Shown: positions 1-46,033, counted from the stretch's first letter. The stretch: DNA of 64,000 nt from Candidatus Krumholzibacteriia bacterium (GCA_041484665.1 JBGPIA010000002.1:42045-106044), one strand, 5' to 3'. Translations and numbers: made by a program. The notes: a model not told the origin generated them from the letters alone.

Positions 1-899
1 CCGTCGCTGGCATAGCCTCCTGCCTGATCCACGATGTACGCCAACGGGGCCGCCTCGTACAGCAGGCGCAGCTTCGGCTTGGGTGACTCACCCGGATGGC
101 GCGCGACCGCCGGATAGAGGAACACGCCGCCCCGCAGCAGATTGCGGTGGAAGTCGGCGACCAGGCTCCCCGCGTAGCGCGCGGTCAGCGGCGGGTGGCC
201 CTCCCAACCGCGCCGGAGCTGGTCCACGATCGCGCCCACGCGCGGGTCGGCCAGGGGCAGGTTGGCGTCGTTGACGCTGTAGATACGGCCTTGGCGGGGG
301 ATGCGGATGTCCTCGTGGGAAAGGAGGAACTCCCCGACGGAGGGATCGAGCGTGAAGCCGTGCACGCCCGTCCCGGCCGTGTAGACGAACATCGTACTGC
401 TGCCGTAGACCACGTAGCCCGCCGCCACCTGGCGATAGCCGCCCTGCAGCAGATCCTGCAGCGTGCCCGGCCCCTCGCGCGTGACGCGCCGGAAGATGGA
501 GAAGATCGTCCCGATGGAGATGTTGACGTCGATGTTGCTGGATCCATCGAGCGGGTCGAACACCAGCACGTAGCGGCCGCAAGGATAGCCCGGCTCGATG
601 GCGACGGGCTGCTCCCACTCCTCGCTGGCCATGACGCAAACGTGCCCGCTGCGCCCGGCGATGCGCGCGAGGGTCTCGTGGGCGTAGACGTCGAGTTTCT
701 GCACGCGCTCGCCCTGGACGTTCTCGCCGCCCGCCTCGCCCAGGATATCCACCAGGCCGGCGCGATTGACGTGGGCCGCGATCACCTTGGCGGCGAAGGC
801 CACGTCGCTCAGCAGACCCGAGAACGCCCCCCGCGCTTCCGGGTAGCGCCGCTGCGCGTCCATGATCTGGCGTTCGATCGTGATGATGTTGGGTCCCAC
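1..899 (-). CDS. fbp: Fructose-1,6-bisphosphatase class 1, 3'-truncated at the window edge
   Basis: Reverse-strand translation from GTG ~899 (or ATG 863) reads ...[27 protein letters not shown]...[28 protein letters not shown]...[14 protein letters not shown]..., the characteristic FBPase I motifs. It runs off position 1 with no stop. It is absent from the ORF track because it is unterminated. Confidence 0.85.
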
Positions 900-1192
900 G
901 CCCCGCCTTCACCCGGCCTTCCGCGCACCATCCCGTCGCGCAGCATCGCGCGGCACGCCATTCGACCGCGCCGGTGCCCACTCGCCCGCGCGCAACCGCT
1001 CCATGATAACAAAGGCTGCCCGCAGTGTCTCGCCGCAGGGTTCTCGCGCGGGCGTCCGGCAGGGCCGCCACACGGCCGCGCCGGAGCCGGGTCGCCCTCG
1101 CCCGGCCAGCGCCGGCACGCAAACGGGTGACTCCGCCGCGTTGTTCCACTATCCTGGCAGCCCGCCGCCCCCCGAGGCGGGGAGGAGCCGCG

Positions 1193-2080
1193 ATGGTCAA
1201 GCTGCGCAAGACGTACGACCGCTGGCTCGAGGCGCTGTGCCTCGACATGGAGGACAAGTTCGTGGCGTTCCTCCGCCAGACGGGGCGCGCGGTGGAGATC
1301 GACAACGTGGTGGTCGATTCCCAGGAGTTGTTCGCGCGCCACTTCACCTGTGATACGACGACCTGCGACCCGACCCTGCGTGGCCGCGCCATGCGCTCCT
1401 GTTGCTGCGAGCTCACCGTCGACCTGACCTGGGACGAGGCGCGCCGGATCGAGGAGCACCTGCCGGACATCCGGGCAGTCATGGAGGAGGCGGCGCAAGC
1501 GCCAGGGCTCGCGGTCCTCGACCGCGGCGCGTTCCACGTCATGGCCGACGACTTCTCGCCGCAGCTGGCCAAGCACCGCTGGGGCTGCGTATTCGCCTAC
1601 CGCGAGGAGGGCCGCTCGTTCCGTTGCGCCGTGCACGCGGCGGCGCTGCGCTTGGGCCTGCCCATCACAGCGCTCAAGCCCAACATCTGCAGTCTGTGGC
1701 CGCTGGCGCTCATCGAATACCAGACGGGTCAGTACGTCCTCACGGCCCTCACCGACGAGACCGGGGGGCTGCTGGAGGACGACGAGCAGCACGCGCGCTA
1801 CGCCTGCCTGAAGAATGACCGCAAGGGCCCGCCCCTCTATCGTGAGTTCACGGGGCTGCTCGCCGAGCTGTTCGGAGCGGAGTTCATCGCGCGCCTGGAC
1901 GCGGAGTACGAGCGTTGGGAGGAGCGGGAGCGGTCGCAGCCCGCTGCCACCGCCGTGCCGGCGCAGCCGCCGCCGACGCCGGTGCGGCGCCCGCGCAACG
2001 GCGGGCGGCCGGCCGAATCTCATCCTACGGATACGCAGCCGCCGCGAGGGCGCCGCGCTGCGGATGCGCGTCACCGGTAG
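1193..2080 (+). CDS. Cys-rich conserved hypothetical protein with a Pro/Arg-rich C-terminal tail
   Basis: ATG at 1193 follows a GGGAGGAG Shine-Dalgarno sequence. It contains the Cys cluster CDTTTCDPTLRGRAMRSCCCE and further Cys residues. It is divergent from fbp, and its 3' end overlaps the convergent gene by 10 nt. Confidence 0.55.
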   Translation: MVKLRKTYDRWLEALCLDMEDKFVAFLRQTGRAVEIDNVVVDSQELFARHFTCDTTTCDPTLRGRAMRSCCCELTVDLTWDEARRIEEHLPDIRAVMEEAAQAPGLAVLDRGAFHVMADDFSPQLAKHRWGCVFAYREEGRSFRCAVHAAALRLGLPITALKPNICSLWPLALIEYQTGQYVLTALTDETGGLLEDDEQHARYACLKNDRKGPPLYREFTGLLAELFGAEFIARLDAEYERWEERERSQPAATAVPAQPPPTPVRRPRNGGRPAESHPTDTQPPRGRRAADARHR

Positions 2081-4080
2081 TTGGCGCTCAGCTCGCCGGC
2101 TCCCTGTGGCAGCGCGACCAGGCGCAGCTCGCGGCCAAACGACGAGGAGCGGCGGCTCTCCGCAGGCTGCCAGGACGCTTCCCAGCTGGTAAGCGTCAAC
2201 CGGCGCCAGTGCAGCGGCAGCGCCACGGCCAGTCCCGCCTGCGCGGCGCCGGCCGGGGCCTCCACATGGACGCGCAGCAGGCCGCCGCCGTAGACCCAGC
2301 GCACGTGCGCCTGGGCGCGCAGCTCCCAGAAGTCCAGGAGCGCGGTCATCGTCGCCAACTGGTGGTTGCGACGCTGCGCGAGCTCCGGTAGCGCATCCCA
2401 CATCCGGAACAGCTCCGCCGACGGGGTCTCCCCGAAGACGTCGGGGTGGAAGAGCAGCGCGACCGGACCGTGTCCGCCGACGGCATTGGTTCGCAGCCAG
2501 CGGTCCACCCGCGCGCGATCGACGCCCCCATCGGTGTCGCCCCAGAGGAACGGTACCTCCCAGAGCGGGTAGGCGAGCCCGCGCCGATCGATGGGGCGGA
2601 AGGGGACGGCGCTGCCGAACAGCCAGCCCGCGGCACCGTGGTCCGGGCCGTAGCTCGAGTCGCCGCGGAAGCCCGCGCCCACCAGCCATCGCCAGCCGCG
2701 GTCCACGTCGTCGGGCCAGAGCAGGGAGTGGTTGCGATTGAGCGTCAGCGGCGTCCCGGCGGGTAGGCGCGCCACGAGGCCCTCTCGCTGCTCCACGATC
2801 GACGGCAGCTGGGCGAGCGGCTGGAAGCGCCACGCGCCGATCCGCCGGCGGGGCGAACGCTCGTCCTTCCAGGTGGCCCCCACCGGCAGCCGTGCCTGTA
2901 GCCCAATCTCGGCGCCGTCGGCCAGCGGCCCCCCCTCACCTTCTACCGTGAGCCGCGCATCGGGCGCCATCAAGTACAGCGTGGACGGAGCTCCGCGTCC
3001 GGCCTGGGCGCGCGTCATCCAGCGGGACGTGTCGCGCCAGCCGTCGTCGTCGTGCGTCAGGAGCACCCATCCGTCGCGCGCCAGCGGGGCCGGCCAGACG
3101 CTGGCCCACGGAGCGGGAGCGAGCTCGGCATCAAACAACGCCGCGATCCAGGCGTCCAGCCATGGTGCGTCGGCCTGCAGCAGCGACCGCGTTGCGACGA
3201 GGTCGTTGGTCTCGCCGGGGCCGGCGAGCACGCCCGCGTAGCGATCCGGCAGATGGAAGCCGGGGTCCGGCACGCCCTGGCGAATGCTCAGCGCGAGGTC
3301 GCCGACGTCCAGCGCGCAGATGAGCCACGCACCCGCCCCTTCGTCCAGCCGCCACAGCGCGGGGCGGCCTCCCATGTCCAGGATGGGGCGGGCGAGGGCG
3401 CGCGCCGAGGCCGCGGGCGCATAGCGGGACACGCGCACGGGCAGCGGCAGCGGTGGTGGGTCGGGCAACGGCACGTCGAGCGTGGGAGCCCGCAGGCGTG
3501 GCGCGGGCGCCCAGGTCAGCTCGGGCACGACCTCCTCGCCCTGCAGGTCCAGGCCCATCTCCTTGGCCCAAAGCGGGGGCGGGGCCTCCAGCACCACGAC
3601 CAGTCCCTGCGAAACGTGTGGGCGCAGCGCCGATACCCACCCCGCGTCCAGTCCGGCCAGCGTCCGGCGCGGTAGCACCAGCACCGCGCGGTTCTGCAGC
3701 GCTGCGTCGATGTCGCGCCCGACCTCTTCGGTGGCCAGCACGTCGCAACCACCAAAGGCCTGGGTGAGGACGTTGGACCACTCGAGGTCCGCCGCGCGCT
3801 GTGCCGGTGTGCGCGGAGCGCGGCCCTTGTACGTCTCCCAGCGCACCGCCAGGAGCACGGGATGGTCCGTCGCGCGGCGCGGGAAGGCGGCACCGCCTTG
3901 CGGCTGACGGGTGGGCAGGTGGATCGGATGGGCGTCGCACCAGAGCGCAGCGGCGCACAGCACCAGCAGCACGCCGCTCAGTCGCGCCCGTGCGCGTCGG
4001 CGCCGGCCGGCGGGCTGCGGGCGGGTCCGGGCCGGACCCGCAACTCCCGCACCGCGCGAGCTCGGCTCGAAGCCGATCAT
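2071..4080 (-). CDS. Exported ~669-aa protein, paralog B of a tandem pair, with a possible deacetylase-like domain
   Basis: N-terminal hydrophobic anchor LSGVLLVLCAAALW. Blocks are shared with the neighbouring paralog (LLTHDDDGWRDTS; NRNHSLLW; LDSSYGP; LFHPDVF) and loosely recall CE4/NodB deacetylase motifs. It has a 4-nt ATGA overlap with the upstream gene. Confidence 0.6.
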   Translation of the reverse strand: MIGFEPSSRGAGVAGPARTRPQPAGRRRRARARLSGVLLVLCAAALWCDAHPIHLPTRQPQGGAAFPRRATDHPVLLAVRWETYKGRAPRTPAQRAADLEWSNVLTQAFGGCDVLATEEVGRDIDAALQNRAVLVLPRRTLAGLDAGWVSALRPHVSQGLVVVLEAPPPLWAKEMGLDLQGEEVVPELTWAPAPRLRAPTLDVPLPDPPPLPLPVRVSRYAPAASARALARPILDMGGRPALWRLDEGAGAWLICALDVGDLALSIRQGVPDPGFHLPDRYAGVLAGPGETNDLVATRSLLQADAPWLDAWIAALFDAELAPAPWASVWPAPLARDGWVLLTHDDDGWRDTSRWMTRAQAGRGAPSTLYLMAPDARLTVEGEGGPLADGAEIGLQARLPVGATWKDERSPRRRIGAWRFQPLAQLPSIVEQREGLVARLPAGTPLTLNRNHSLLWPDDVDRGWRWLVGAGFRGDSSYGPDHGAAGWLFGSAVPFRPIDRRGLAYPLWEVPFLWGDTDGGVDRARVDRWLRTNAVGGHGPVALLFHPDVFGETPSAELFRMWDALPELAQRRNHQLATMTALLDFWELRAQAHVRWVYGGGLLRVHVEAPAGAAQAGLAVALPLHWRRLTLTSWEASWQPAESRRSSSFGRELRLVALPQGAGELSANYR

Positions 4081-6011
4081 GGCTGCCCCGCGCCGCCGTA
4101 CACGGCGACGATGGTGTGTTCGCCCGCTGGAAGCGGGATCTGCACCCAGCCCCAGCGCTCCGCCGGCGGCGCCGGCAGCGTCCCACCATCGAGTTCGATG
4201 GCGCGCAGCAGCCCCAAGCCCGCCGCGCTCGGAGTGAGCTCGAGCGCTTGGCCTTCTCCCACGACGTGGAGCTGGAAACGGCGCCGACCGCGGCCCGCGT
4301 CCGCCTCCACCAGGAGCGCGCGTCCCTGCAGGCGAGCGTGGCGGAAGGCGAGGTAGTGGCTCATGCTCATGACCGGATGGCGGTGATGGGCCGCCGCCGA
4401 GAAGCTCTGCAGCAGGCCGCGCATGCGGAACGCGTCGGGGTTTCGCTGCATGGTCGCCGTGTGGAAGATCGGCGTCAACACGCAGTGGTAGCCGGCCTCC
4501 GAGTCGGCCAGCAGCTGCTCCTGGAGCGCCGGATCGTAGCGCTTGTCATCCTGGAAGCAGAACGGCAGCTCCAAAAGCGCGAACGGGTACCCGGTGACGT
4601 CGAGCGGGTGGTAGGGACGGCCGGTCTCAAATACGTAGCCGAATCGACCCTCAGCGGGCCCGTAGCTGGAGTCCAGCTCGAAGTGCTGCGCCTGCAAGAT
4701 GCGCAGCGTGCGCGTCCAGTGACCGTCCCAGAGCAGTGCGTGAGTGCGGTTCATCGTCACCGCCGGGGCACCCGCGGGCAGGCGCCGCTGCAGCGCCTGC
4801 ACCTGGTCGGCGAGATTGAGCTCCTTGGCCAGGGGGCGCCAGGGCCCCACGCCGATGCGCCGGACCTGGTGGAGCCAGGAACCGCGGTTCCACTGCAGCT
4901 GCACGTCGCAGCCGGCCTGGAGCATGGCCGACGTCCCGGCCACCGTGATCCGATCGGGGATGGCGAAGAATGTGCTACTGGCGCCCTCGCTCGCCGCGAG
5001 ATCGCTCAAGAACGTCGAGCGATCGCCGAAACTGTCCTCGTCGTGCGTCATGACGAAGAGCCCGGCCGTTCCGGCGGGCAGCGGGCTGAGGCGTGCGGTG
5101 GGCGCCAGCGCGAACCCAGATGCGAGCACCGTGCGCGCCAGCAGGTCGGCCCGCGGCACCCAGGCCACTACGCGCGTAGGGTCGGCCACGAGATCGTCGG
5201 GCTCCACGCCGCGCTCCGGGCCATGGCTGTTGTGCGTTCCGTGTACCGAGAAATCGTCCTGGGGCACACCCTGCCACAGGGCGGTGAGCCAGCGGCCCAG
5301 GTCGCAGGCGAGCACGACAACCGCACCGCGCTCCCACGCCAGACGCCACGCGGCCGCGCCGCCGTCGAGCCAGAGCAGTGCCTGGTCGTCCGGGGGGCAC
5401 GCCGACGGTCGCTGGCACGTCGTGATCACGGGCATCCCGTCCGCCCAACCCGGCGGCGCGTAGGGAAGCATGGGGGCGACGCGGGTCAGGCGGCGCGGCG
5501 CAAACGCCTGCGCCGACAGCCCAACGCGCGTCGGTCGCAACACGCTGTCGTCGGGTTGCTCGAGGATGAGGAGCGAGCCCTGCTCCGCCAACTGGAACAG
5601 AGCAGTCGTGAGGTCGGCGGCCAGCGCACCGCAGGACCGGGTGACCACCGCGACCAGGGGGCGCCCGCGCTCCGTGGTCTTCCGGAGATCCGCCGCCCCC
5701 GCCAGGCGGACGTCGAGGCAGCGCGTGGCTCCGGCCTCTTCCTCGAGCACTGACAGCCAGGCCAGGCTGCAGTCCAGTTGCGCGGAGGATCCCCCGGCCG
5801 CCGCGGCCTCGACCCTGGCGCCGTCGTAGAGGAGCAGCGCCGAGGGTGCTGCGACGGCGGCGGGCGGCTCGGCCGGCTGCTCGGCGTCGGGGTTGTCGAG
5901 CCAGACTGGTTTGCGGCCGTAGTGCTGCGCCACCACGGCCGCAGCGCCGCACAGTGCAAGCAGCGACGCCGCGAGCGCCTTGCGCCTCAACACTCCCCGC
6001 CGCGCGACCAT
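4077..6011 (-). CDS. Exported ~644-aa protein, paralog A of the tandem pair
   Basis: Signal peptide MVARRGVLRRKALAASLLALCGAAAVVA. Blocks homologous to paralog B: VMTHDEDSFGDRS, NRTHALLW, LDSSYGPAEG, IFHTATM. Confidence 0.6.
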   Translation of the reverse strand: MVARRGVLRRKALAASLLALCGAAAVVAQHYGRKPVWLDNPDAEQPAEPPAAVAAPSALLLYDGARVEAAAAGGSSAQLDCSLAWLSVLEEEAGATRCLDVRLAGAADLRKTTERGRPLVAVVTRSCGALAADLTTALFQLAEQGSLLILEQPDDSVLRPTRVGLSAQAFAPRRLTRVAPMLPYAPPGWADGMPVITTCQRPSACPPDDQALLWLDGGAAAWRLAWERGAVVVLACDLGRWLTALWQGVPQDDFSVHGTHNSHGPERGVEPDDLVADPTRVVAWVPRADLLARTVLASGFALAPTARLSPLPAGTAGLFVMTHDEDSFGDRSTFLSDLAASEGASSTFFAIPDRITVAGTSAMLQAGCDVQLQWNRGSWLHQVRRIGVGPWRPLAKELNLADQVQALQRRLPAGAPAVTMNRTHALLWDGHWTRTLRILQAQHFELDSSYGPAEGRFGYVFETGRPYHPLDVTGYPFALLELPFCFQDDKRYDPALQEQLLADSEAGYHCVLTPIFHTATMQRNPDAFRMRGLLQSFSAAAHHRHPVMSMSHYLAFRHARLQGRALLVEADAGRGRRRFQLHVVGEGQALELTPSAAGLGLLRAIELDGGTLPAPPAERWGWVQIPLPAGEHTIVAVYGGAGQP

Positions 6012-6021
6012 GGTGGAGCCC

Positions 6022-6393
6022 TCAACCGCTCAGGCTCACCAGCAGCACTCCGGCCACGATCAGGGCACTGCCCAACAGGCGCGGGCGCGTGACGGCCTCG
6101 CCGAACGCCATCCGCGCGGCCAGCATGATCCCCACGTAGCTCAGGCTGATGAACGGGAACGCAAAGCTCAGCTCCACGAGAGCGAGCGCAGAGAGCCACA
6201 TGAAGGTGGAGACCCCGTAGAGGCAAAGGCCCAGCACCAGGCGGGAGGCTCCCTGGCGCCAGTGGCGCCTGGAGGTCGTCCGGCCGACGCGCCCGACGCG
6301 GATCATGGCGCTCTTGAGGCAGACCTGCGCCAGCACCGCGGAGCCAACGCTGGCCAGGATGAAGGGGAGCGCGGCGTGCGGGTCGTGCGTCAT
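6022..6393 (-). CDS. SMR/EamA-type 4-TM small membrane protein, ArnE-like
   Basis: 123 aa with four hydrophobic helices. ...AVLAQVCLKS... and ...AFPFISLSYVGIMLAA... match the ArnE pattern (QLCQK; AYPxLSL). Confidence 0.6.
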   Translation of the reverse strand: MTHDPHAALPFILASVGSAVLAQVCLKSAMIRVGRVGRTTSRRHWRQGASRLVLGLCLYGVSTFMWLSALALVELSFAFPFISLSYVGIMLAARMAFGEAVTRPRLLGSALIVAGVLLVSLSG

Positions 6394-6836
6394 GACTGCG
6401 GTCCGCTCGCTGCGGATTCGGCTCCGCCGGCTGCGCCAGCCGGCCCACCAGAGCCAGCGTAAGCCTCGTCACCGGGCCGCTGCCGCCCCCGCTCACCGCG
6501 CGCCACGACCATGATTCCGGTGAGGATCAGCGCTGTGCCGATCCATCGCAAAAGGGGAACCTGCTCGTGCAGCAGCGCCGCCGACAAGAGCGTGACCAGG
6601 ACGTAGCTCAGCGAACCCAAGGGATAGGCGACGGCCAGATCGACGCGCGAGAGCACGAGCAGCCACACTGCCGTCCCCGTGGCGAACACGAGCAGCCCGC
6701 CCACCACCCAGCCGGAGAGCGCGGCGCTGCGCAAGAGCGCCAGCCCGTGCGAGCCTGCGGCCTGCGCCATGCCGCGGCGCAGCATCAGCTGGGCGGTCAC
6801 GCTCATCACGACGCTCACGCCCACCAGCTGCACGGT
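6390..6836 (-). CDS. SMR/EamA-type 4-TM small membrane protein, ArnF-like; start uncertain (GTG ~6836 or ATG 6806)
   Basis: ...VQLVGVSVVMSVTAQLMLRRG...AVAYPLGSLSYVLVTLLSA...GTALILTGIMVVA. The long ORF 6390..7472 in the track is over-extended through an Arg-rich low-complexity frame. It has a 4-nt overlap with the ArnE-like gene. Confidence 0.5.
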   Translation of the reverse strand, partial: TVQLVGVSVVMSVTAQLMLRRGMAQAAGSHGLALLRSAALSGWVVGGLLVFATGTAVWLLVLSRVDLAVAYPLGSLSYVLVTLLSAALLHEQVPLLRWIGTALILTGIMVVARGERGRQRPGDEAYAGSGGPAGAAGGAESAASGPQS

Positions 6837-7293
6837 GCGCGCATCCAGCCCGCCGCGCGCGCGCGTCACGCCGTCCTCCCGGCCGCGATCCCGGCCATGA
6901 CGGCGCTTGCGGCGCCCGGGCAGCTTGTTGCCCTCACCGTGAGCGCGACGAGCGGCATCGCCCGAGGGGGCGGGCGCAGGGGACGGGCGCTGTCGGATAC
7001 GGTCACGGCATCGAGCTCCATGAAGGGCGTCCAGGGTGCCGCGGGGCAGCCGCCGCCGGAGCGGGTTCCCTCCCCGCGCGGGCCCAATCCGGCGGGCCCA
7101 CATCGCGCTGCAGTCTAGAGCGGGTGGGCTCCGGCGGCGAGGCCCGCGTCTCCGCCGGGCCTTACCCTCGGCGGGTACGTCCGCTGCGCTTGCCGAGAGC
7201 GCCGCTCGCACGTACCGTTGCGCGACGGCACGGTCGGCCGCCGCGGACGGCCCCGGTCGCGCGTACGATTCCGCGCGCAGGAGGTGAATCGGC

Positions 7294-7710
7294 GTGATGG
7301 CGACCGGCCGTCCGCGGGGACGGGCGTTGCGGCGGCGACCGGGGCTCCACTGGCGGCGGTTCCTGCCGCTGCTGGTCGCCGTGGGCGTGGCGGCGTGCGG
7401 CCGCCATGGTCGCGAGTCCGCCGCGACGGTGCGTGCCGCAACGCCGCTCCCGCCGGTACGCTGGCGCGGCATCGCGCGCGCGCAGCGCTACGTCGTGCGC
7501 GGCTGGTCGGGCGATCAGTTGCTCTTCGAGCTGACGACACGCGACACGCTGCTGGCGCTCAGCCCGTCGCTGCAACAGACGCTGGCGGCGTTCGACTCCG
7601 CTGCGGTCGAAGTGCTGGGGATGGGAGAGCAGGGTCTGATCGGTCGGCAGGCAGTCGTGCTGCGTAGCCCCGGACAACGGGACGGGGGTGGTGCCGGAGG
7701 TGGGATTTGA
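7294..7710 (+). CDS. Small putative lipoprotein (hypothetical)
   Basis: AGGAGG lies 9 nt before GTG 7294 / ATG 7297. It has a lipobox-like LLVAVGVAACG. Its 3' end overlaps the 3' end of tRNA-Leu on the opposite strand by ~22 nt, which lowers confidence. Confidence 0.35.
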   Translation: MMATGRPRGRALRRRPGLHWRRFLPLLVAVGVAACGRHGRESAATVRAATPLPPVRWRGIARAQRYVVRGWSGDQLLFELTTRDTLLALSPSLQQTLAAFDSAAVEVLGMGEQGLIGRQAVVLRSPGQRDGGGAGGGI

Positions 7711-7981: not shown

Positions 7982-8051
7982 ACTCCCCTCGCACAGCGCC
8001 GCCGTTCCCACCCTCCTCGACGCCGCCGTGGCGCCAGCGCGCGGTCGAGCC

Positions 8052-9395
8052 ATGAGCGCGAGCGCGCCTACCGTCGTCTTCTTCGAGGACGCTGGTGTCG
8101 CAGGCCTCTTCCCGCTCACGCTGACCCGACCGGCCTTCGAGCTGCGCAGTGGGGCGCTCAATCTGCGCGAGCGCGTGCAGCTGTGCGCCGGCCCGCGTGC
8201 CGTTGCGGCCTGCGTGCGTCCGGCGCTGCAACCCTTGTTGAGCGCCACGCTGCCCGGCCTGGCCGGCGCAGCGCTCGCCGCGGCCGGACCTGCCGTGTGG
8301 ATCAACGGCCGGCTGCGCGCGAGCGTTGAGACCCTGCGCCGCATGCTGACCCTCCCAGCGGCGCCCTCCCGCGCGCTGCGTGTGGATGGGATGGTGGCCA
8401 TGGCGTGGATCGACGCCGACGCTTCCCTGGCGCTGCGACCGGCCGCCGGCCCCACGCCGCTGCTCGCGCTGCTGGAGTCGTTGCCGCCGGCGGAGGCGAT
8501 CACGGACGTGGGGCTCTTCTCCCATCCGTGGGAAATCGTCCAGGCCAACGGTCGGCTGCTGTGCGACGACTTCCGTACGCTGCGCGACGGCACCCCGATC
8601 GCGCGCGAGATCTTCGGCGTCCGCTTCGAGCCCGGGGCGGGCGCCCGCGCGCTACTGGCCCGCGACGCGTACGGCGCGGCGCAGCAGGCCATCCTGTACC
8701 CTGGGGTGCACGTGCTGGAGGAGGAGAACGTACGGTTCGGGGCCGGCTGCCAGCTCAAGCCTGGCGTGGTCCTGGACGCGCAGCAGGGCCCGATCCTGAT
8801 CGGCGCCGGCGCGCTCCTTGCGCCCAACGTCGTGGTGGAAGGCCCGGCGTACATTGGCCCGGGCTGCACCATCAACCCGGGCGCGCGCCTGCGCGAGGGA
8901 ACGAGTCTGGGAGCGCTCTGCAAGGTGGGCGGAGAGGTTGAGGAGTCGGTCGTGCTCGACCTGAGCAACAAGCAGCACGATGGCTTCCTGGGGCACGCCG
9001 CCCTGGGCTCCTGGGTGAACCTGGGCGCCGACACCAACGGGAGCGACCTCAAGAACAACTACGGGACGGTGAAGGTCGATCTCGGGGAAGGGGAGATCGA
9101 CAGCGGACTGCGCTTCGTCGGGCCCACTATCGGCGATCACTCCAAGACCGGCATTAATACGATGCTCACCACTGGGGCCGTGATCGGTGTCTGTTGCAAT
9201 GTGTACGGAGGCGGCTTTCCTCCTCGGTTCGTACCGAGCTTCCGCTGGGGCGGCCCCGAGGGCTGGGTTGAGCACCGGCTGCCGGCGGCGTTGGGTACGG
9301 CCCGCACGGTGATGGGGCGGCGTCAGGCGGTCTGGCTTCCCGAGCACGAGGCGCTGCTTGCCGACGTGCACGCCGCCACCGCGCGCCAGCGCTGA
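8052..9395 (+). CDS. GlmU-like putative sugar nucleotidyltransferase with a C-terminal left-handed beta-helix (hexapeptide repeats)
   Basis: N-terminus MSASAPTVVFFEDAGVAGLFPLTLTRPAFEL (nucleotidyltransferase-like). C-terminus has imperfect hexapeptide repeats: GPAYIGPGCTINPGARLREGTSLGALCKVGGEVEESVV...LGSWVNLGADTNGSDL. Alternative ATG at 8028. Confidence 0.6.
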   Translation: MSASAPTVVFFEDAGVAGLFPLTLTRPAFELRSGALNLRERVQLCAGPRAVAACVRPALQPLLSATLPGLAGAALAAAGPAVWINGRLRASVETLRRMLTLPAAPSRALRVDGMVAMAWIDADASLALRPAAGPTPLLALLESLPPAEAITDVGLFSHPWEIVQANGRLLCDDFRTLRDGTPIAREIFGVRFEPGAGARALLARDAYGAAQQAILYPGVHVLEEENVRFGAGCQLKPGVVLDAQQGPILIGAGALLAPNVVVEGPAYIGPGCTINPGARLREGTSLGALCKVGGEVEESVVLDLSNKQHDGFLGHAALGSWVNLGADTNGSDLKNNYGTVKVDLGEGEIDSGLRFVGPTIGDHSKTGINTMLTTGAVIGVCCNVYGGGFPPRFVPSFRWGGPEGWVEHRLPAALGTARTVMGRRQAVWLPEHEALLADVHAATARQR

Positions 9396-9417
9396 CCGCG
9401 CGGCGACGGCGGCGTTG

Positions 9418-10137
9418 ATGCTGCTCATCGGAGAGACTCTCACCAGCAGCAGCCCTGCGGTCAGGACCGCGCTGGTCAGCCGCGACGCTGCCTGGCTCAC
9501 CGCCTGCGCCCGGCGGCAGCTTGCGGCCGGCGTCGAGCTGCTCGACTGCAACGCTGCCGTGCTGGGAGCCGGGGAGCGCGCGGCGCTGGTGTGGTTGGCG
9601 GAGCTGCTGGAGGGAGCGGTGGCGGCACCGCTGTGCCTGGACAGCTCCGATGTGGCGGTGCTGGCGGCGGCCGGCTGCGGCCGCCGGTTCCCACCCGTGC
9701 TGAACTCGGTGGCCGCCACTCCGCCGTGGCCCGAGCTGATCGTGGAGCTGGTGGGCGCGGGGGCGCGGCTGATCGTGCAGCTGCGCGAAGGGCGCCAGCT
9801 GCCCCACGACGCAACCACGCGACTGCGCTGGGCGGAGCGGGCGCTGGCAGGCGCGGCGCGGGCGGGTCTGCCTGCGGAGCGGATCCTGCTCGATCCCGTG
9901 CTGCTACCGTGGGGACACGACCTGGTGCAGGGCGCGCCGCTTCTGGCATTCGTGGAGGATGCGGCCACGCGCTGGCCCGCCGTGGCGACCATCGTGGGGC
10001 TCTCCAACGCGTCGTTTGGCGCCGCCGGCCGCTCGGAGATCCACCGCGCCTGGCTGCGCGCTCTCAAGACAGCCGGGCTGGGCGCGGTCATCCTGAACCC
10101 GTTCGACGCCGAGCTGATCGCGATCGCCCGGACCTGA
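9418..10137 (+). CDS. Pterin-binding (DHPS-like TIM-barrel) protein of the methyl-THF:corrinoid methyltransferase family (MtrH/AcsE/MetH pterin domain-like)
   Basis: MLLIGETLT... compares with the AcsE N-terminus MLIIGERIN. LCLDSSD compares with LCLDSTN. LLDPVLLP compares with YIDPLILP. IVGLSNASFG compares with GLSNVS(F)G. The ORF in the track extends to 9358, but the family start is at ATG 9418. Confidence 0.65.
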   Translation: MLLIGETLTSSSPAVRTALVSRDAAWLTACARRQLAAGVELLDCNAAVLGAGERAALVWLAELLEGAVAAPLCLDSSDVAVLAAAGCGRRFPPVLNSVAATPPWPELIVELVGAGARLIVQLREGRQLPHDATTRLRWAERALAGAARAGLPAERILLDPVLLPWGHDLVQGAPLLAFVEDAATRWPAVATIVGLSNASFGAAGRSEIHRAWLRALKTAGLGAVILNPFDAELIAIART

Positions 10138-10455
10138 GTCAGTTTACCGACCCCTCGCGGAATCTGGCGTATCGGGCCTTGGCCGGACACCGCGGCTCCG
10201 TACCCGTCGTAGCCAGTAACCAATTACCCCCTTTCAAGATACGCGTTCGTGCCTGGAAGTCGGTGCTCGCCGTTCGATGCGGCACGGGACTTGATGCTGT
10301 AGGGCTCTGCGTCGCCTGCGTGGCGCGCGACTTGCCGGGCGGCTCCTTCATCTTCGGTCTTCGACCAGCCATTGCCGGCACGCGGCCGCCGCGGACGACG
10401 CACAACTTCTACTTCCGGTCCGGCGCGCTCCAGTGCGCCGTGCGACCGCCGATCC

Positions 10456-10481
10456 GGCCCCGCGCCCTCCGTCGCGGGGCC
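10456..10481 (+). terminator. Perfect 9-bp GC hairpin (GGCCCCGCG-N8-CGCGGGGCC) followed by GTTTCGTT, abutting the -35 of the BMC promoter
   Basis: Seen directly in the sequence. It is terminator-like but lies 320 nt downstream of the nearest stop codon, so its function is unclear. Confidence 0.3.
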
Positions 10482-10487
10482 GTTTCG

Positions 10488-10517
10488 TTGACACCCGCGC
10501 GCGACCGCTGGTAGGGT
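10488..10517 (+). promoter_or_regulatory. Putative sigma-70-type promoter of the BMC operon (TTGACA-N18-TAGGGT)
   Basis: TTGACA at 10488-10493; TAGGGT at 10512-10517; ~85-nt GC-rich leader before the BMC-H start. Confidence 0.4.
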
Positions 10518-10600
10518 GCCTTTGTGCGTGCAGCCGCGCGCGCCCGCGCGGGCCGGCGTCACGCCAGCGGTCGCTCATCAGGCAAGGAGCAAGTACGGCG

Positions 10601-10891
10601 ATGAAGGAAGCTCTGGGGATGGTCGAGACGCGCGGCTTCGCCGCGATGGTCGAGGCGGCGGACGCCATGGTGAAGGCGGCCAACGTGGTGCTGATCGGCT
10701 ATGAGAAGATCGGCGCCGGCTACTGCACGGCGATCGTGCGCGGCGACGTCGCGGCGGTGAAGGCCGCCACCGATGCCGGCGCGGCGGCAGCGGCGAAGGT
10801 TGGCGAGTTGATCACCGTGCACGTCATCCCGCGCCCGCACACCAACGTGCAGGAGCGGTTGCCGATCGGCGGGGTCGCCGATGGCAAGTGA
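10601..10891 (+). CDS. Bacterial microcompartment shell protein, BMC-H hexamer (PduA/EutM/CcmK family)
   Basis: [60 protein letters not shown]...VHVIPRPH is a canonical Pfam00936 BMC domain. RBS AAGGAGC upstream. Confidence 0.9.
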
Positions 10892-10912
10892 CAGCGCGGG
10901 CAGGAACGACCC

Positions 10913-11200
10913 ATGCAGCTCGCCGAGGTGATCGGCACGGTGGTGGCCACGCGCAAGGAGCCGACCCTTGCCGGCATGAAGCTGCTCGTGCTCAAGGTGA
11001 TCGACCTGCAACGCCAGCCGCTGGGGCAGTATCTGGTGGCGGCCGACGCAGTGGGCGCCGGGACGAGCGAGATCGTTCTGTTCGCCGCCGGAAGCTCGGC
11101 CCGCCTCACCGAGATCACGAAGGACCGTCCGGTGGACGCCGTCGTGATGGCGATCGTGGACGCCCTCGAGGTAGGTGGCACGTTCCTCTACGAGAAGTAA
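10913..11200 (+). CDS. BMC vertex protein, BMC-P pentamer (EutN/CcmL/PduN family), copy 1
   Basis: MQLAEVIGTVVATRKEPTLAGMKLLVLKVID...YLVAADAVGAGTSEIVLFAAGSSAR...VDAVVMAIVDALEV matches the EutN/CcmL fold pattern. Confidence 0.85.
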   Translation: MQLAEVIGTVVATRKEPTLAGMKLLVLKVIDLQRQPLGQYLVAADAVGAGTSEIVLFAAGSSARLTEITKDRPVDAVVMAIVDALEVGGTFLYEK

Positions 11201-11297
11201 TCTGCAGCGCGACGGCACTCCGGGCGGGCGCCGCGCCGTCGACCGGTCTCCTCCCGCCGGCGCCCGGCGCCCGCGGACGCAAGGGCGGGCAGGCGCC

Positions 11298-12806
11298 ATG
11301 TCGCTGAGCGAAGAGCGCATCTCCGAGATCGTGCAGGCGGCGCGAGCGCGGGCGGGGCTTGACGCGCCGTTGCGCGCCCCGGCGGCGCACGCGCCGGCCG
11401 GCTCCGGCCCGGCCCACGGCGGCGAGGCCGGCGGCCTTGGCCGCTCGCTGCCCGGCGGCGGCCACGGGCCCGACAGCGCCATGCAGGGCATCTTCCCCAC
11501 GCTCGAGGAGGCGGTGCGCGCCGCGGCGCACGCCTTCGAGCAGTTCCGCGGCTTCCCGCTGGAATCGCGCAAGGCGATGATCGATTCGATCCGCCGCAAG
11601 CTGCGCGCGAATGTCGACCTGCTCGCGCGCCTGGCCGTGGAGGAGACCGGCCTGGGGCGCGCCGAGGACAAACGGGCCAAGAACCTCCTGGTGATCAACA
11701 AGTCACCCGGCCCGGAGATCCTCGTGCCCGAGTGCCAGACCGGCGACGATGGTCTGGTGCTCACCGAATGGGCTCCGTACGGCGTGATCGGCGCGATCAC
11801 CCCGGTGACCAACCCCAGCGAGACGGTGATCAACAACGGGATCGGGATGCTCGCCGCCGGCAACGCCGTCGTGTTCAACGGGCACCCCGGCGCCAAGGAC
11901 GTCACGCGGCTGGCGATCTCGCTGATGAACGAGGCAGCCCAGGAGGCCGGCGCGCCGCGCAACCTGCTCACCGCAGTGCGCGAGCCCACCATCGAGACGG
12001 CCCAGGCGCTCATGCGCCACCGGGACGTACGGTTGCTGGTGGTGACGGGAGGCGCGGCGGTGGTTAAGGCGGCGCTGCAGTCAGGCAAGCGCTGCATCAC
12101 GGCCGGACCCGGCAACCCGCCGGCCGTCGTGGACGAGACCGCCGATCTGGCGGCCGCCGCCCGCGACATCACGCTGGGGGCCTCCCTGGACAACAACATC
12201 ATCTGCACGGCCGAGAAGCTCGTGATCGTGGTCGAGGCGGTGCGCGACGCGCTGCTGCGCGAGCTAGGTAGACTGGGCAACGTGATCTTGCGCCAGGACC
12301 AGATCCCCCTGCTCTCCAAGGTAATCTTCGAGGAGATGGCGGGACCACGGCAGCGCGCCCGCATCGACCGGCAGTACGTGGGCAAGAACGCCCGCGTAAT
12401 CCTGGCCAAGCTCGGCATCCAGGCGACCGACAGCTGCCGGCTGGCGATCGTGCCGGTCGACAACGATCATCCGTTGCTGTGGACCGAGCAGATGATGCCG
12501 GTCCTGCCCGTCACCTCGGCGCCGGACGCTGAGACGGCCATGGATCTGGCCGTGGCCATGGAGGGGGGCAACCGGCACACGTTCATCATGCACAGCAAGC
12601 GTGTGGACCGTCTCAGCGCCATGGCGCGCAAGTGCGACGCGTCGATCTTCGTGAAGAACGGCCCGAACATCGCCGGGCTGGGCCAGGGCGGCGAGGGCCC
12701 CACGAGCTTCACCATCGCGACGCCGACGGGGGAGGGGATGACCGATGCCCGCTCCTTCTCGCGGCGCCGGCGCTGCACGTTGGTGGGCGAATTCCGCATC
12801 GTCTGA
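11298..12806 (+). CDS. CoA-acylating aldehyde dehydrogenase (EutE/PduP type) with an N-terminal encapsulation peptide
   Basis: ALDH core: GNAVVFNGHPGAKDV...NNIICTAEK (catalytic Cys). The N-terminus MSLSEERISEIVQAARARAGL is an amphipathic helix. It is followed by a ~45-residue Ala/Gly/Pro linker before the catalytic domain starts at MQGIFPTLEEAV. The track ORF starts at 11175, but the ATG at 11298 is the likely start. Confidence 0.88.
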   Translation: MSLSEERISEIVQAARARAGLDAPLRAPAAHAPAGSGPAHGGEAGGLGRSLPGGGHGPDSAMQGIFPTLEEAVRAAAHAFEQFRGFPLESRKAMIDSIRRKLRANVDLLARLAVEETGLGRAEDKRAKNLLVINKSPGPEILVPECQTGDDGLVLTEWAPYGVIGAITPVTNPSETVINNGIGMLAAGNAVVFNGHPGAKDVTRLAISLMNEAAQEAGAPRNLLTAVREPTIETAQALMRHRDVRLLVVTGGAAVVKAALQSGKRCITAGPGNPPAVVDETADLAAAARDITLGASLDNNIICTAEKLVIVVEAVRDALLRELGRLGNVILRQDQIPLLSKVIFEEMAGPRQRARIDRQYVGKNARVILAKLGIQATDSCRLAIVPVDNDHPLLWTEQMMPVLPVTSAPDAETAMDLAVAMEGGNRHTFIMHSKRVDRLSAMARKCDASIFVKNGPNIAGLGQGGEGPTSFTIATPTGEGMTDARSFSRRRRCTLVGEFRIV

Positions 12807-12846: not shown

Positions 12847-13458
12847 ATGGACGGGCGTACCGCGCTGGGGCTGATCGAGTGTCGGAGCATGGCGCGGGGA
12901 ACGGTTGTCGCCGACGCCATGCTCAAGACCGCGCGCGTGCACCTGCTACTGTGCGCGCCCGTTTCGCCGGGCAAGCTGCTGGTGGGCCTGCGCGGCGGCG
13001 TCGCCGATGTGGAGGCCGCGATGGCGGCGGGCCTGCACGTGGCGGGCGACTGGCTGGAGGACGCGCTCTTCATCCCGCGCCTGCACGACGAGGTGGCTGC
13101 TGCGTTGTTGCGGCCGCTGGGGCAGGGCGTGCTCGAGTCCCTGGGGATCGTCGAGACCGCCACGGTGGCGGCAGCGTTGCGTGCTGCCGACGCATCGCTC
13201 AAGGCGGCGGGCGTGCGGCTGCTCTCGATCCGGTTGGCCGCGGGGATTGGGGGCAAGGCCATCTACTTCGTCACCGGAGCGCTGCCCGACGCGCAGGCGG
13301 CCGTCGACGCGGGATGTGTCGCGGTACAGCACGCGGCGCTGCTCGTGCACTGCGAGGTCATCCCGCAGCCCCACCCCGATCTGGCCTGGTACCTGGCCCA
13401 GGGTCCGGGGCAGGCGTCCGCCCCCGGCGGAGTGTGGACCCTGCCGCAGGAGGAGTGA
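12847..13458 (+). CDS. Tandem-domain BMC shell protein (BMC-T, PduT-like)
   Basis: Two Pfam00936-like domains. Domain 1: ALGLIECRSMARGTVVADAMLKTARVHLL...SPGKLLVGLRGGVADVEAAMAAG (compare the PduT segment [24 protein letters not shown]). Domain 2: SLGIVETATVAAALRAADASLKAAGVRLL...AGIGGKAIYFVTGALPDAQAAVDAG. 203 aa. Confidence 0.8.
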   Translation: MDGRTALGLIECRSMARGTVVADAMLKTARVHLLLCAPVSPGKLLVGLRGGVADVEAAMAAGLHVAGDWLEDALFIPRLHDEVAAALLRPLGQGVLESLGIVETATVAAALRAADASLKAAGVRLLSIRLAAGIGGKAIYFVTGALPDAQAAVDAGCVAVQHAALLVHCEVIPQPHPDLAWYLAQGPGQASAPGGVWTLPQEE

Positions 13459-13459
13459 G

Positions 13460-13870
13460 GTGCAGCTGGCGCGCGTGCTGGGGACCTGCGTGGCCACGCG
13501 CAAGGTGGAGAGCCTGCGCGGACTGCGCCTCTTGATCCTACAGCCGCTCACGTTCGACCTGGAGCCGCGCGGACCGCACGTGATCGCCGCCGACGTGGTG
13601 CGGGCGGGGCGGGGCGAGCTGGTGTTCTTCGTACGTGGGCGCGAGGCCGCCAATTCGTTGCCGCAGCCCTTCTGCCCCATCGACGCTGCGTGCGTGGGAA
13701 TCGTGGACGAGCTGGGCATGGTGGCGCTGACCGGGGCCACGGACAACGCATCGCGCGAGGCTGCGGGGCGCCCCGTGGCCGCCGTGCGGGCGCAGGATGC
13801 CGCGGCCGCCGGCACGCCACAGGCCGCTGCGCTTGTCTGGAGGGTGCGCCAGGGAGGGGAGATGCCGTGA
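13460..13870 (+). CDS. BMC-P pentamer (EutN/CcmL family), copy 2, GTG start
   Basis: VQLARVLGTCVATRKVESLRGLRLLILQPL...HVIAADVVRAGRGELVFFVRG...IDAACVGIVDELGMV. The start lies 2 nt after the BMC-T stop. It has an Ala-rich C-terminal extension. Confidence 0.8.
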   Translation: MQLARVLGTCVATRKVESLRGLRLLILQPLTFDLEPRGPHVIAADVVRAGRGELVFFVRGREAANSLPQPFCPIDAACVGIVDELGMVALTGATDNASREAAGRPVAAVRAQDAAAAGTPQAAALVWRVRQGGEMP

Positions 13871-14127
13871 AGGTCGCCCGCGTGGTGGGCCAGGTGGTCG
13901 CCACCCTCAAGCACCCGGACCTGGAGGGGTACCACCTGCTGGTCGTCCAACCCGAGCCGGTCGGCGGCCTGGCGGGTGGGCCCGCGCTGATCGCCATCGA
14001 CCGCATCGGGGTCGGTGTCGGCGAGCGCGTCCTGCTGGTGGACGACGGGGCTGCCGCCCGTGGACTGTTGGGCAAGAGCGGACCGGTCCGCAGCATGATC
14101 GTCGGGGTCATCGACGCGGTGGGGTAG
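13867..14127 (+). CDS. BMC-P pentamer (EutN/CcmL family), copy 3, GTG start overlapping the previous stop
   Basis: VKVARVVGQVVATLKHPDLEGYHLLVVQPE...LIAIDRIGVGVGERVLLVDDGAAAR...VRSMIVGVIDAVG. Confidence 0.8.
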   Translation: MKVARVVGQVVATLKHPDLEGYHLLVVQPEPVGGLAGGPALIAIDRIGVGVGERVLLVDDGAAARGLLGKSGPVRSMIVGVIDAVG

Positions 14128-31173: not shown

Positions 31174-32016
31174 TTAGCGCAGCAGAGCCAGGGCAGCCTG
31201 GGGAACCAGGTTGGCCTGGGCCAGCACGGAGATGCCCGCCTGGTTCAGCACCTGCAGCGACGTCATCTTGGCGGCCTCCTCGGCCACATCCACGTCACGG
31301 ATCCGCGAGTTGGCGGCCGTGAGGTTCTCCACCGAGATCCCGAGGTTGCGCACCGTCGACTCCAGACGGTTCTGGACGGCACCGAACGAGGCGCGGGTCC
31401 TGGAGATGCTGGTCAGCGCGGTCTCGATCTTGGCGATGGCAGCCAGCGCGTTGGTGGCGTTGCTGCCCGTCAGGCTGACCGTCGTCCCCGGGGTCAGGCC
31501 CAGGGCCGAGGCGCTGATCGTGGTCGTGAAGGCGACCGAGATGCGGTCGTTGCTCGTGTTGCCGGTGCCGACCTGCAGGTCGATCGTCCCGCCCTGGCCG
31601 TCCAGCAGCTTGGCGCCGTTGAAATCGGCGGTGGCGCCGATCCGCGTCACTTCAGCCAGCAGCGCCTGGAACTCGTCGTCGAGGAAGCCGCGCTCCGCCG
31701 ATCCGACCGTTCCGTTCGCCGCCTGCTCCGAGAGCTCGCGCAGGCGGATCATCATGCTGCTGACTTCGTTCAGGCTGCCTTCTGCAGTCTGGACCATCGA
31801 GATGCCGTCGTTCGCGTTGCGGGACGCCTGCTGGAGGGCCCGGACATCGCTGCGCAGGCTCTCGCTGATCGCCAGCCCAGCGGCGTCGTCACCCGCGCGA
31901 TTGATGCGCAGGCCGCTGCTGAGCTTCTCCAGCGACTTGCCCAACATCACGCCCGTGTTGTACAGGTTGCGCTGCGCGTTGATGGAGGCAACGTTGGTGT
32001 TTACCCGCAGTCCCAT
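31174..32016 (-). CDS. fliC: Flagellin (280 aa)
   Basis: MGLRVNTNVASINAQRNLYNTGVMLGKSLEKLSSGLRINRAGDDAAGLAISE...; C-terminus ...KMTSLQVLNQAGISVLAQANLVPQAALALLR. AAGGAGG RBS. The track ORF is extended to 32154. Confidence 0.92.
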   Translation of the reverse strand: MGLRVNTNVASINAQRNLYNTGVMLGKSLEKLSSGLRINRAGDDAAGLAISESLRSDVRALQQASRNANDGISMVQTAEGSLNEVSSMMIRLRELSEQAANGTVGSAERGFLDDEFQALLAEVTRIGATADFNGAKLLDGQGGTIDLQVGTGNTSNDRISVAFTTTISASALGLTPGTTVSLTGSNATNALAAIAKIETALTSISRTRASFGAVQNRLESTVRNLGISVENLTAANSRIRDVDVAEEAAKMTSLQVLNQAGISVLAQANLVPQAALALLR

Positions 32017-32122
32017 GTCTTCCTCCTTGAAGGTGGGCGAGGGTCCGATTCCGAACTTCGCTCGCAGGGGGCGCTGCCGGTCCGTGGCGTCTCCCCCCGG
32101 GGCGGTCGTCGTTGTGCCCGGG

Positions 32123-32149
32123 ATATCGGCCGGGGGCGGTCGGACTTGA
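32123..32149 (-). promoter_or_regulatory. Sigma-28 (FliA)-type promoter for flagellin: TCAAGTCC-N11-GCCGATAT
   Basis: The reverse complement matches the TAAAGTTT-N11-GCCGATAA consensus with exact spacing. The ~100-nt leader carries several GGA motifs (CACGGAC, UCGGAAUCGGAC, CAAGGAGGAAG), the last overlapping the Shine-Dalgarno sequence. Confidence 0.55.
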
Positions 32150-32195
32150 GCCACAGTTTCGGCGCGGCACGGGCCTTGAGAGGGCCTTCCCCGGC

Positions 32196-46029: not shown

Positions 46030-46033
46030 ACGC

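Follow-up and report, generated by a model that had tools for sequence, protein, structure and literature searches.

Organization of the locus

The window analysed here is a stretch of 64,000 nucleotides from a Candidatus Krumholzibacteriia bacterium (GCA_041484665.1 JBGPIA010000002.1:42045-106044), a flagellated organism with a bacterial microcompartment (BMC) locus and a G+C content of ~72% over the whole window. On its minus strand, between positions 2071 and 6869, four co-directional open reading frames (ORFs) encode two ArnE/ArnF-like membrane proteins with four transmembrane (TM) segments each, small membrane protein 1 (6390-6869) and small membrane protein 2 (6022-6393, 123 aa), followed by two large paralogs, B (4077-6011, 644 aa) and A (2071-4080, 669 aa). 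All four ORFs had been grouped into one operon, at 2071-6836, in a reading of the sequence alone (hereafter, the original prediction), and all four are confirmed. The start of small protein 1 is ambiguous, being placed at the GTG of position 6836 in the original prediction (148 aa) and at that of position 6869 in the public gene call (159 aa). Overlaps of 4 nt, as had been described for the operon, are found, as ATGA, at two of the three junctions (small protein 1/small protein 2 and B/A), whereas the stop codon of small protein 2 is separated from the start of B by a 10-nt gap. Third-position G+C is 0.88-0.93 in the three genes for which it was measured (B, A and small protein 2).

Both small proteins exceed the gathering threshold (28.2 bits) of the Pfam family EamA, with 33.0 bits for small protein 1, a half-size EamA protein, and 29.8 bits for small protein 2. 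Of the NCBIfam models, ArnE (52.3 bits) and ArnF (46.7 bits) score best for the former and ArnF (58.2 bits) and ArnE (44.9 bits) for the latter, short of the equivalog cut-offs discussed below but 30-40 bits over the models of drug-exporting small multidrug resistance (SMR) proteins. The two are 38% identical to each other over 66 aa (E = 3e-11) and carry the motifs on which their likeness to ArnE/ArnF had been proposed, QVCLK in small protein 2 and AYPLGSLSY in small protein 1. The count of Lys plus Arg in odd versus even loops is 8/3 in small protein 1, which predicts an N-in orientation like that of Escherichia coli ArnF (5/1), and 0/11 in small protein 2, which predicts N-out, like E. coli ArnE (0/7). 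Because this opposite bias mirrors that of the E. coli proteins, an antiparallel heterodimer of the ArnE/ArnF type is the natural prediction for the pair. A full-length alignment with ArnE and ArnF from E. coli K-12 gives 28-35% identity to ArnE for the window pair and its nearest relatives (22% for the small EamA protein of L018, a distant locus described below). All 11 aligned proteins share Q17, W54, A66, S71 and G96 (ArnE numbering), and 90% or more also have P68 and E87. Where proton-coupled SMRs have their central TM1 Glu, all 11 have the uncharged Gln (Q17); according to a review of SMR proteins, loss of this Glu is typical of lipid SMRs and the glycolipid-flippase subtype (PMC9574504). 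Proteins of the ArnE/ArnF type are known for carrier-linked monosaccharides (PMC9574504), and the substrate specificity of the window pair cannot be read from these sequence features.

Architecture of the large paralogs

Paralogs A and B are 30% identical over 508 aa (BLASTP E = 2e-43), in line with the original prediction of two paralogs of this size with an N-terminal anchor or signal. They share the blocks THDED/THDDD, NRTHALLW/NRNHSLLW, DSSYGP and IFH/LFH; the longer form LDSSYGP, which had been listed as common to both, is exact in B only, A having GDSSYGP. Each has one N-terminal hydrophobic segment, preceded by 5 Arg/Lys in B and ~10 in A. Since these N-termini are rich in Arg and Lys, the positive-inside rule places the bulk of both proteins outside the cytoplasm, and A and B are predicted to be N-in with a periplasmic body. 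A lipoprotein signal peptide was considered and rejected: Leu before Cys makes a poor lipobox, and relatives do not retain this Cys.

AlphaFold2 models of B (predicted local distance difference test 80, predicted template-modelling score 0.84) and A (90.9 and 0.90) have in common a long N-terminal helix, an alpha/beta/alpha domain, a distorted (beta/alpha)7-type barrel like that of carbohydrate esterase (CE) family 4 and a C-terminal beta-sandwich, so that each paralog is predicted to be a single-pass anchored, periplasm-facing, three-domain protein of carbohydrate-esterase fold. In B (coordinates on the minus strand here and for A), the hydrophobic anchor or signal spans residues 10-31 by hydropathy (5919-5984; helix 2-33 in the model). 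The alpha/beta/alpha domain (residues ~55-250, 5262-5849) resembles GATase1, ThuA, GH42-M and IFT52 domains, gives faint DUF4350 matches in relatives and contains the family-invariant W85, G145 and Q247-G248. The barrel (residues ~300-562, 4326-5114) carries T322-H-D-E-D326 (5034-5048), Q373 where the family has His (within 4887-4901), N421-R-T-H424 (4740-4751), D447 (4656-4676), E481 (4563-4571) and F516-H517 (4461-4466), and the secondary structure of the model places the beta-sandwich at residues 564-640 (4092-4322). The corresponding elements of A are the TM segment (residues ~34-53, 3922-3981), the alpha/beta domain (~72-270, 3271-3867), the barrel (~320-590, 2311-3123) and the beta-sandwich (592-668, 2077-2307), and its barrel motifs are THDDD (3043-3057), GLQ where the family has GLH (2890-2904), NRNH (2728-2739), DSSYGP (2644-2661), EVP (2551-2559) and LFHP (2443-2454). 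In the model of B the candidate catalytic residues fall at or near predicted strands, where a barrel would be expected to have its active site; their placement on strands of the barrel itself is read from the strand list and remains putative.

The best structural matches of the paralogs are deacetylases rather than hydrolases. For B, the top Foldseek match was Pseudomonas thermotolerans PelA (9cgy; E = 6.5e-11 over 727 alignment columns); for A, the top matches were the CE4-type deacetylases 3rxz and 3s6o, together with domains of the GH42-M type, and PelA was absent from the top 50. The matches also include BA3943, a known CE4-fold pseudoenzyme. Sequence comparison detects much less. Neither paralog has an NCBIfam match or a Pfam match at E ≤ 0.1, Polysacc_deac_1 (PF01522) included, and ten further family members match neither Polysacc_deac_1 nor any other Pfam family at E ≤ 0.01. 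In profile searches there was no significant sequence match of the paralogs to any PDB chain, and the profile from one alignment (A1) yielded nothing meaningful; the second-best PDB match of the family profile was the deacetylase PelA_DA (9ZAU; E = 0.014), confined to the N-terminal domain. A profile of the catalytic domain retrieved three PDB chains only, at non-significant E values of 0.18-0.48, all three of them CE4 esterases aligned in register, with THDE on the TFDD of CE4 motif 1 (MT1), STFF on ATFF and GLHW on the first His of motif 2 (MT2). Comparison with E. coli ArnD by hhalign gave a local alignment agreeing at GLH and FHP, at 12% probability only, and a meaningless global one. The CE4/NodB likeness noted in the original prediction is thus retained as to the barrel fold and these weak in-register matches, but not as to the metal site, which has no HxxxH and, in the window, has Gln in place of the MT2 His. 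The paralogs do not fall into a characterised family unrelated to carbohydrate or lipid-linked modification, an outcome that had been named as refuting the original prediction.

A family with graded loss of a putative catalytic signature

Word-indexed searches, with four matches per paralog, had suggested a very rare family. This was overturned by an exhaustive profile search, which retrieved 1411 cluster representatives at E ≤ 1e-3 and 237 at E ≤ 1e-30, most of them full length (600-690 aa); a profile scan of genome contigs (alignment A2) found one metagenome-assembled genome only. Members are named ‘hypothetical protein’ or unnamed, and they have no NCBIfam model and no Pfam domain except the faint DUF4350 matches in the N-terminal domain. 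From an alignment of 131 representatives we defined a signature of ten residues, in B numbering H323-D324-[ED]-[ED]...H373...R422-x-H424...D447...E481...H517, which is complete in 69 of the 131; the others lack H373, H424 and H517 in various combinations. The initial HD[DE][DE] is missing from 48 representatives, and in the subset that has it D324 is conserved in 99% and E325 in 81%. By contrast with the variable part of the signature, W85, G145, Q247-G248, D289, D447, E481 and R560 are near-invariant whether the signature is intact or not. F-H517 and R422 are conserved in the family and present in both window copies, their putative equivalence to the His of CE4 motif 5 (the catalytic acid) and to the Arg that positions the base resting on strand order. 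By analogy with CE4 enzymes, D324 would be the catalytic base, E325 and H373 metal ligands, R422 the residue that positions the base and H517 the acid, and H424 may replace the absent second His of MT2.

The state of the signature varies between loci (numbered L001 onwards). Both copies of a tandem pair are intact in L001, L012, L015, L017 and L020 and near-intact in L024 and L026, both are degenerate in L014 and L022, and L005, L006 and L013 have degenerate single copies. The pairs of L014 (8286-11929) and L022 (7822-11905) lack most putative catalytic residues in both copies and keep the invariants of the N-terminal domain, D447 and E481; on this pattern of residues they would be pseudoenzymes throughout. 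Within the clade linked to EamA genes, L001 is intact, the window carries His-to-Gln as a single change in both copies, and L014 and L006 are fully degenerate.

Genomic context of the window operon and its relatives

Upstream of the operon lie genes for tRNA-Leu and tRNA-Ala and, beyond them in divergent orientation, an alternative GlmU gene (TIGR03991, 352 bits), for the synthesis of UDP-N-acetylglucosamine (UDP-GlcNAc), and a pterin-binding methyltransferase-like gene. Downstream, a DUF3109 gene (1025-2080, plus strand) is convergent on the operon, and beyond it the gene of a class I fructose-1,6-bisphosphatase (FBPase; 3-908, minus strand) runs off the window start. A Pfam scan of the window covered 39 of the 53 called ORFs, ~15 short ones being left out, and found no arnB, arnC, arnA, arnD or arnT gene among them. 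The sole glycosyltransferase (GT) in this set is a GT2 protein with tetratricopeptide repeats (TPR) at 32906-34756, within the flagellar cluster, and the earlier remark that no glycosyltransferase is in view holds for the neighbourhood of the operon.

We collected 43 loci with family members from four sources and screened them with purpose-built hidden Markov models and phmmer. Tandem pairs of family genes are present in 13 of 17 assessable non-redundant loci, and in a neighbour-joining tree, calculated without support values, the upstream and downstream copies form separate clades; the duplication is therefore old, and the two copies have been retained together. Window A groups with L001_D, L014_D, L005, L006 and L013 in a divergent clade. 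In the window, L001, L006 and L014, the family genes come immediately after a pair of ArnE/ArnF-like (EamA) genes. L004/L018, a distant locus of 48% GC, contains a single EamA gene, located one gene upstream of a family member ~30% identical to B; a second EamA gene was considered there and dismissed, the sequence taken for it being the terminal part of a FemAB-like gene. Synteny between L014 and the window extends over the pterin-binding gene, the alternative GlmU gene, two EamA genes and the two paralogs, with RNase R nearby in both. In these two loci the alternative GlmU and pterin-binding (MeTr-like) genes form a divergent pair (8028-10137, plus strand, in the window; 4690-6660, minus strand, in L014) and overlap by ~38 nt, an odd pairing of a UDP-GlcNAc enzyme with a methyltransferase domain of the methyltetrahydrofolate type. 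We also considered FBPase as a partner of the system, as its gene is directly 3' of a family gene in L001, L005, L006 and L013. In the window, however, the convergent DUF3109 gene separates it from the operon and a promoter-like site lies in front of it (1031-1003, minus strand), and we treat the adjacency as lineage synteny, outside the system.

The richest context is that of L018, which has a near-complete Arn-like set composed of DegT, GT2, CE4, EamA, the family member and a PMT_2 transferase of the GT-C class. Its genes encode a DegT aminotransferase, a Bac_transf/Polysacc_synt_2 fusion, an epimerase/dehydratase, a 262-aa GT2, an amine-oxidase-like flavoprotein, a 296-aa Polysacc_deac_1 protein, two acyltransferase-type proteins, the small EamA protein, a flavodoxin-like protein, the family member, the PMT_2 GT-C transferase, a GT4 and a protein like glycoside hydrolase family 57 (GH57). 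Other members adjoin PMT_2, GT2, GT4, DegT, GFO/hexapeptide or Wzx-like genes; many are next to GT2 genes that also match Glyco_tranf_2_3, and in L020 a GT2 and a MatE/Polysacc_synt exporter stand beside the family genes. The association of the family with amino-sugar glycoconjugate synthesis and membrane translocation is robust, since it is seen in genomes that differ widely. That with an ArnE/ArnF-type flippase is confined to the window's clade and L018.

Some neighbours recur in only part of the family. In L012 (3918-5700), L015 (14048-15985) and L017 (11991-13942), the tandem pair is followed by a conserved opposite-strand gene of ~135-164 aa and an outer-membrane protein of the FadL/Toluene_X type. 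The small gene has no Pfam match in L017, the sole copy scanned. The arrangement may point to a substrate that is hydrophobic or lipid-linked and crosses the outer membrane. A flavoprotein of the amine-oxidase/DAO type is encoded just upstream of family or EamA genes in L001 (2251-3585), L017 (5666-7489), L018 (4985-6271) and L026 (3-848), and is absent from the window. In L035 (2456-12431; 31% G+C), three genes for B12-binding radical SAM proteins flank a single family gene, with PMT_2, GT2, GT4 and DegT genes nearby.

These contexts bear on whether the four genes form a functional unit at all. The small proteins could be generic EamA/SMR exporters of small molecules, and the paralogs could be enzymes of the periplasm, glycoside hydrolase-like or otherwise, with nothing but the operon in common with them. 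We regard this as very improbable. Five separate loci share the linkage, including the distant one of 48% GC, so that the small proteins are not EamA transporters without conserved linkage, the second outcome that had been named as contradicting the original prediction, the EamA-to-paralog arrangement being found in at least four loci besides the window. The small proteins lack the central Glu that proton-coupled SMR exporters need, the ArnE/ArnF models clearly outscore the drug-SMR models, and the nearest structures to the paralogs are not hydrolases.

Comparison with known systems

Judging from the models, the closest characterised architecture is that of PelA_DA and PelA, not that of ArnD. 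PelA_DA of Bacillus cereus (BCE_5585, PDB 9ZAU; PMC13254593), as described in its publication, shares with the modelled paralogs a length of ~610-670 aa, a single-pass N-terminal TM segment with the bulk of the protein outside the cytoplasm, and an alpha/beta/alpha domain, a distorted (beta/alpha)7 CE domain and a C-terminal beta-sandwich in the same order. It has been proposed to dock through its TM helix on the membrane exporter encoded beside it, and its N-terminal and CE domains form an extended polymer groove (PMC13254593). It differs in having an HxxxH zinc motif, where the family has one His and the window Gln, in the lack of significant sequence similarity in the catalytic domain, and in being encoded by a single gene with pelD/E/F/G, whereas the window proteins are a tandem pair with ArnE/ArnF-like small proteins. 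Pseudomonas PelA (CE21; PDB 9CGY; PMC12022489) differs from them in having an extra N-terminal GH166 hydrolase domain, no TM anchor, a D-H-H metal site with HxxxH and a gene in a pel operon.

This resemblance opens the possibility that A and B are tethered exopolysaccharide de-N-acetylases of the Pel or poly-N-acetylglucosamine (PNAG) type, which would act on a long polymer rich in N-acetylhexosamine as PelA_DA does with PelG, the EamA proteins being part of the export machinery or of its supply. The match to the PelA_DA architecture and its polymer groove, the positions of PelA and PelA_DA in the structure and profile searches, and the Glyco_tranf_2_3-matching GT2 genes, MatE/Polysacc_synt exporter and FadL-like proteins found beside relatives all fit such a role. 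Yet scans of the window ORFs found no pelD/E/F/G-like gene, synthase-like GT2 or outer-membrane export gene adjoining the operon, whose neighbours (DUF3109, FBPase, tRNAs, alternative GlmU, pterin-binding protein and BMC genes) do not make a pel operon; the HxxxH zinc site of PelA_DA and PelA is missing, PelA is not among the leading matches of A, and the partners are of a type known for carrier-linked monosaccharides. On balance we consider a polymer deacetylase somewhat unlikely.

In the Arn pathway of E. coli and Salmonella, ArnD is a protein of ~296 aa that acts before flipping, on the cytoplasmic side of the membrane, whereas the window paralogs have 644-669 aa, three domains, a duplicated gene and a predicted periplasmic location. 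The original prediction had compared them with ArnD, and of that comparison the CE4-like character remains, the architecture being closer to PelA_DA and PelA. The same holds for the proposed arn-type module, which is supported in the identity of its parts but not as a pathway, there being no ArnT/ArnC-type transferase among the window ORFs scanned and the support coming from the analogy with distant L018. The systems for three-component periplasmic glycosylation, which combine a polyprenyl-phosphate GT, a small flippase and a GT-C transferase (e.g., Gtr), likewise move a carrier-linked monosaccharide with a small flippase. In the lipid A hexosamine systems of Francisella (FlmF2/NaxD/FlmX/FlmK) and Bordetella (Lgm), a deacetylase that unmasks an amine accompanies the flippase, and family members similarly adjoin PMT_2 GT-C and GT2 genes. 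In these known systems, however, the deacetylase is small and faces the cytoplasm, while the window proteins are predicted to be extracytoplasmic, duplicated and PelA_DA-like. No such flippase partner is described in the literature that we searched on flippase-linked periplasmic deacetylases, nor did we find there a description of this family, its tandem duplication, its coupling to an ArnE/ArnF-type flippase or the graded loss of catalytic residues, although each component is of a known kind.

Proposed function

The best-supported reading, which we hold tentatively and with somewhat less than even confidence, is that the operon is devoted to the flippase-coupled periplasmic processing of an amino-sugar glycoconjugate, by de-N-acylation or by binding. 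The alternative GlmU gene that neighbours the operon in both the window and L014 counts in its favour, beside the ArnE/ArnF-like features of the small proteins, the topology and domain order predicted for the paralogs, the conserved pairing and EamA linkage, and the Arn-like set of L018. The four genes form one translationally coupled operon, and their products would handle the glycoconjugate at the outer face of the inner membrane. The small proteins, as an antiparallel SMR/DMT-like heterodimer of the ArnE/ArnF type, would carry a sugar linked to polyprenyl phosphate, most probably a derivative of an N-acylated hexosamine, across from the cytoplasmic leaflet to the periplasmic one. A and B, tethered to the same membrane by one N-terminal helix each and holding their PelA_DA-like three-domain bodies in the periplasm, would take the flipped sugar or short glycan, probably as a hetero-complex, and either remove the N-acyl group or bind the molecule and pass it along, for attachment to its acceptor by a transferase encoded elsewhere.

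Several observations weigh against this proposal. Both small proteins score below the curated equivalog cut-offs for ArnE and ArnF (92 and 99 bits; NF011625, NF002816). No GT-C, ArnC-like GT2 or sugar-nucleotide tailoring gene is found near the operon among the window ORFs scanned, and these include none of ArnT, ArnC, ArnA and ArnB. The substrates of PelA_DA and PelA are polymers, not carrier-linked monosaccharides (PMC13254593, PMC12022489). L018, the locus most like an arn cluster, also encodes a separate CE4 protein of ArnD size, and hence its large family member is not the equivalent of ArnD. The canonical HxxxH of MT2 is absent across the whole family, which has one His only (LHW), and even this His, present in 85 of the 131 representatives and in nearly all that are otherwise intact, is Gln in both window paralogs. 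Finally, L014, the nearest syntenic relative, as well as L005, L006 and L013, have lost most signature residues and kept the gene arrangement. As the arrangement survives the loss of the signature, the partnership with the flippase appears to be independent of catalysis: either the conserved role is binding and hand-over with optional catalysis, or the lost residues are non-essential. It is mainly because the partnership outlives the putative metal site that our confidence in the term ‘deacetylase’ for the window proteins is limited.

The same observations could mean that the pair is not catalytic, and that A and B are CE-fold pseudoenzymes that bind a glycan or glycolipid without deacetylating it, and serve the flippase or a later transferase as receptor, chaperone or regulator in the periplasm. 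The window copies are the only two of the 131 representatives in which His-to-Gln is the single change in an otherwise intact signature, ~40-47% of the representatives lack an intact one (62 lack the full ten residues), and the degenerate copies of L014 (both), L005, L006 and L013 retain W85, G145, Q247-G248, D289, D447, E481 and R560 as well as the EamA linkage; CE4-fold pseudoenzymes are, moreover, known, BA3943 among them. But the two window copies depart from the signature at only one of its ten positions and keep the putative base D324 as well as R422, H424 and the putative acid H517, the Gln could still hold a metal or water, and L001, the closest intact relative, has the full signature in the same gene arrangement. 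We judge a purely non-catalytic pair to be unlikely, and regard processing of a flipped amino sugar, with chemistry or capture as its periplasmic step, as the better account of the operon.

A bolder reading is rather doubtful. The tandem pair could represent an uncharacterised family of extracytoplasmic, membrane-tethered CE-fold proteins that form an obligate hetero-complex on a lipid-linked-sugar flippase and add a step of processing after flipping, which would be de-N-acylation, or capture and hand-over in the degenerate lineages. If this is true, the recurrent decay of the metal site with retention of the flippase partnership and the N-domain invariants would be a shift from enzyme to receptor within one system.

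De-N-acetylation of amino sugars generates positive surface charge and is the basis of resistance to polymyxin and other antimicrobial peptides in the Arn, NaxD and Lgm systems, and it also underlies the function of the biofilm matrix in Pel and PNAG. To our knowledge, known lipid-carrier pathways deacylate before flipping, and known periplasmic deacetylases act on polymers made by synthase systems. A PelA_DA-like pair wired to an ArnE/ArnF-type flippase would join these two themes and would provide a function for a sizeable unannotated family. Since intact, single-substitution and fully degenerate versions share one gene arrangement, the family would also constitute a natural series for the passage from carbohydrate esterase to pseudoenzyme.

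Other features of the window

The BMC locus follows right after the pterin-binding gene (10433-12806, plus strand) and encodes a BMC-H shell protein (10433-10891), an EutN/CcmL vertex protein (10913-11200) and an aldehyde dehydrogenase (11175-12806); these genes are not found at the same place in the syntenic L014. A flagellar cluster occupies 20887-63344, with genes for FlgA, FlgI, FlgK, an FlgL-like protein, FliD, flagellin, two sigma-54 activators, FliI, FlgE, FliM, FliP and FlhA. The GT2-TPR gene mentioned above and the flagellin gene (31174-32154) are ~750 nt apart on opposite strands, and the product of the former may be a flagellin glycosyltransferase. Three ORFs without Pfam matches show a codon bias typical of coding sequence, with third-position G+C of 0.81-0.84: one of 802 aa (44605-47013, minus strand), one of 334 aa (12946-13950, minus strand) and one of 138 aa (7294-7710, plus strand). 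The last of these is located between the operon and tRNA-Leu, overlaps the tRNA gene on the opposite strand and encodes a hydrophobic N-terminal stretch.

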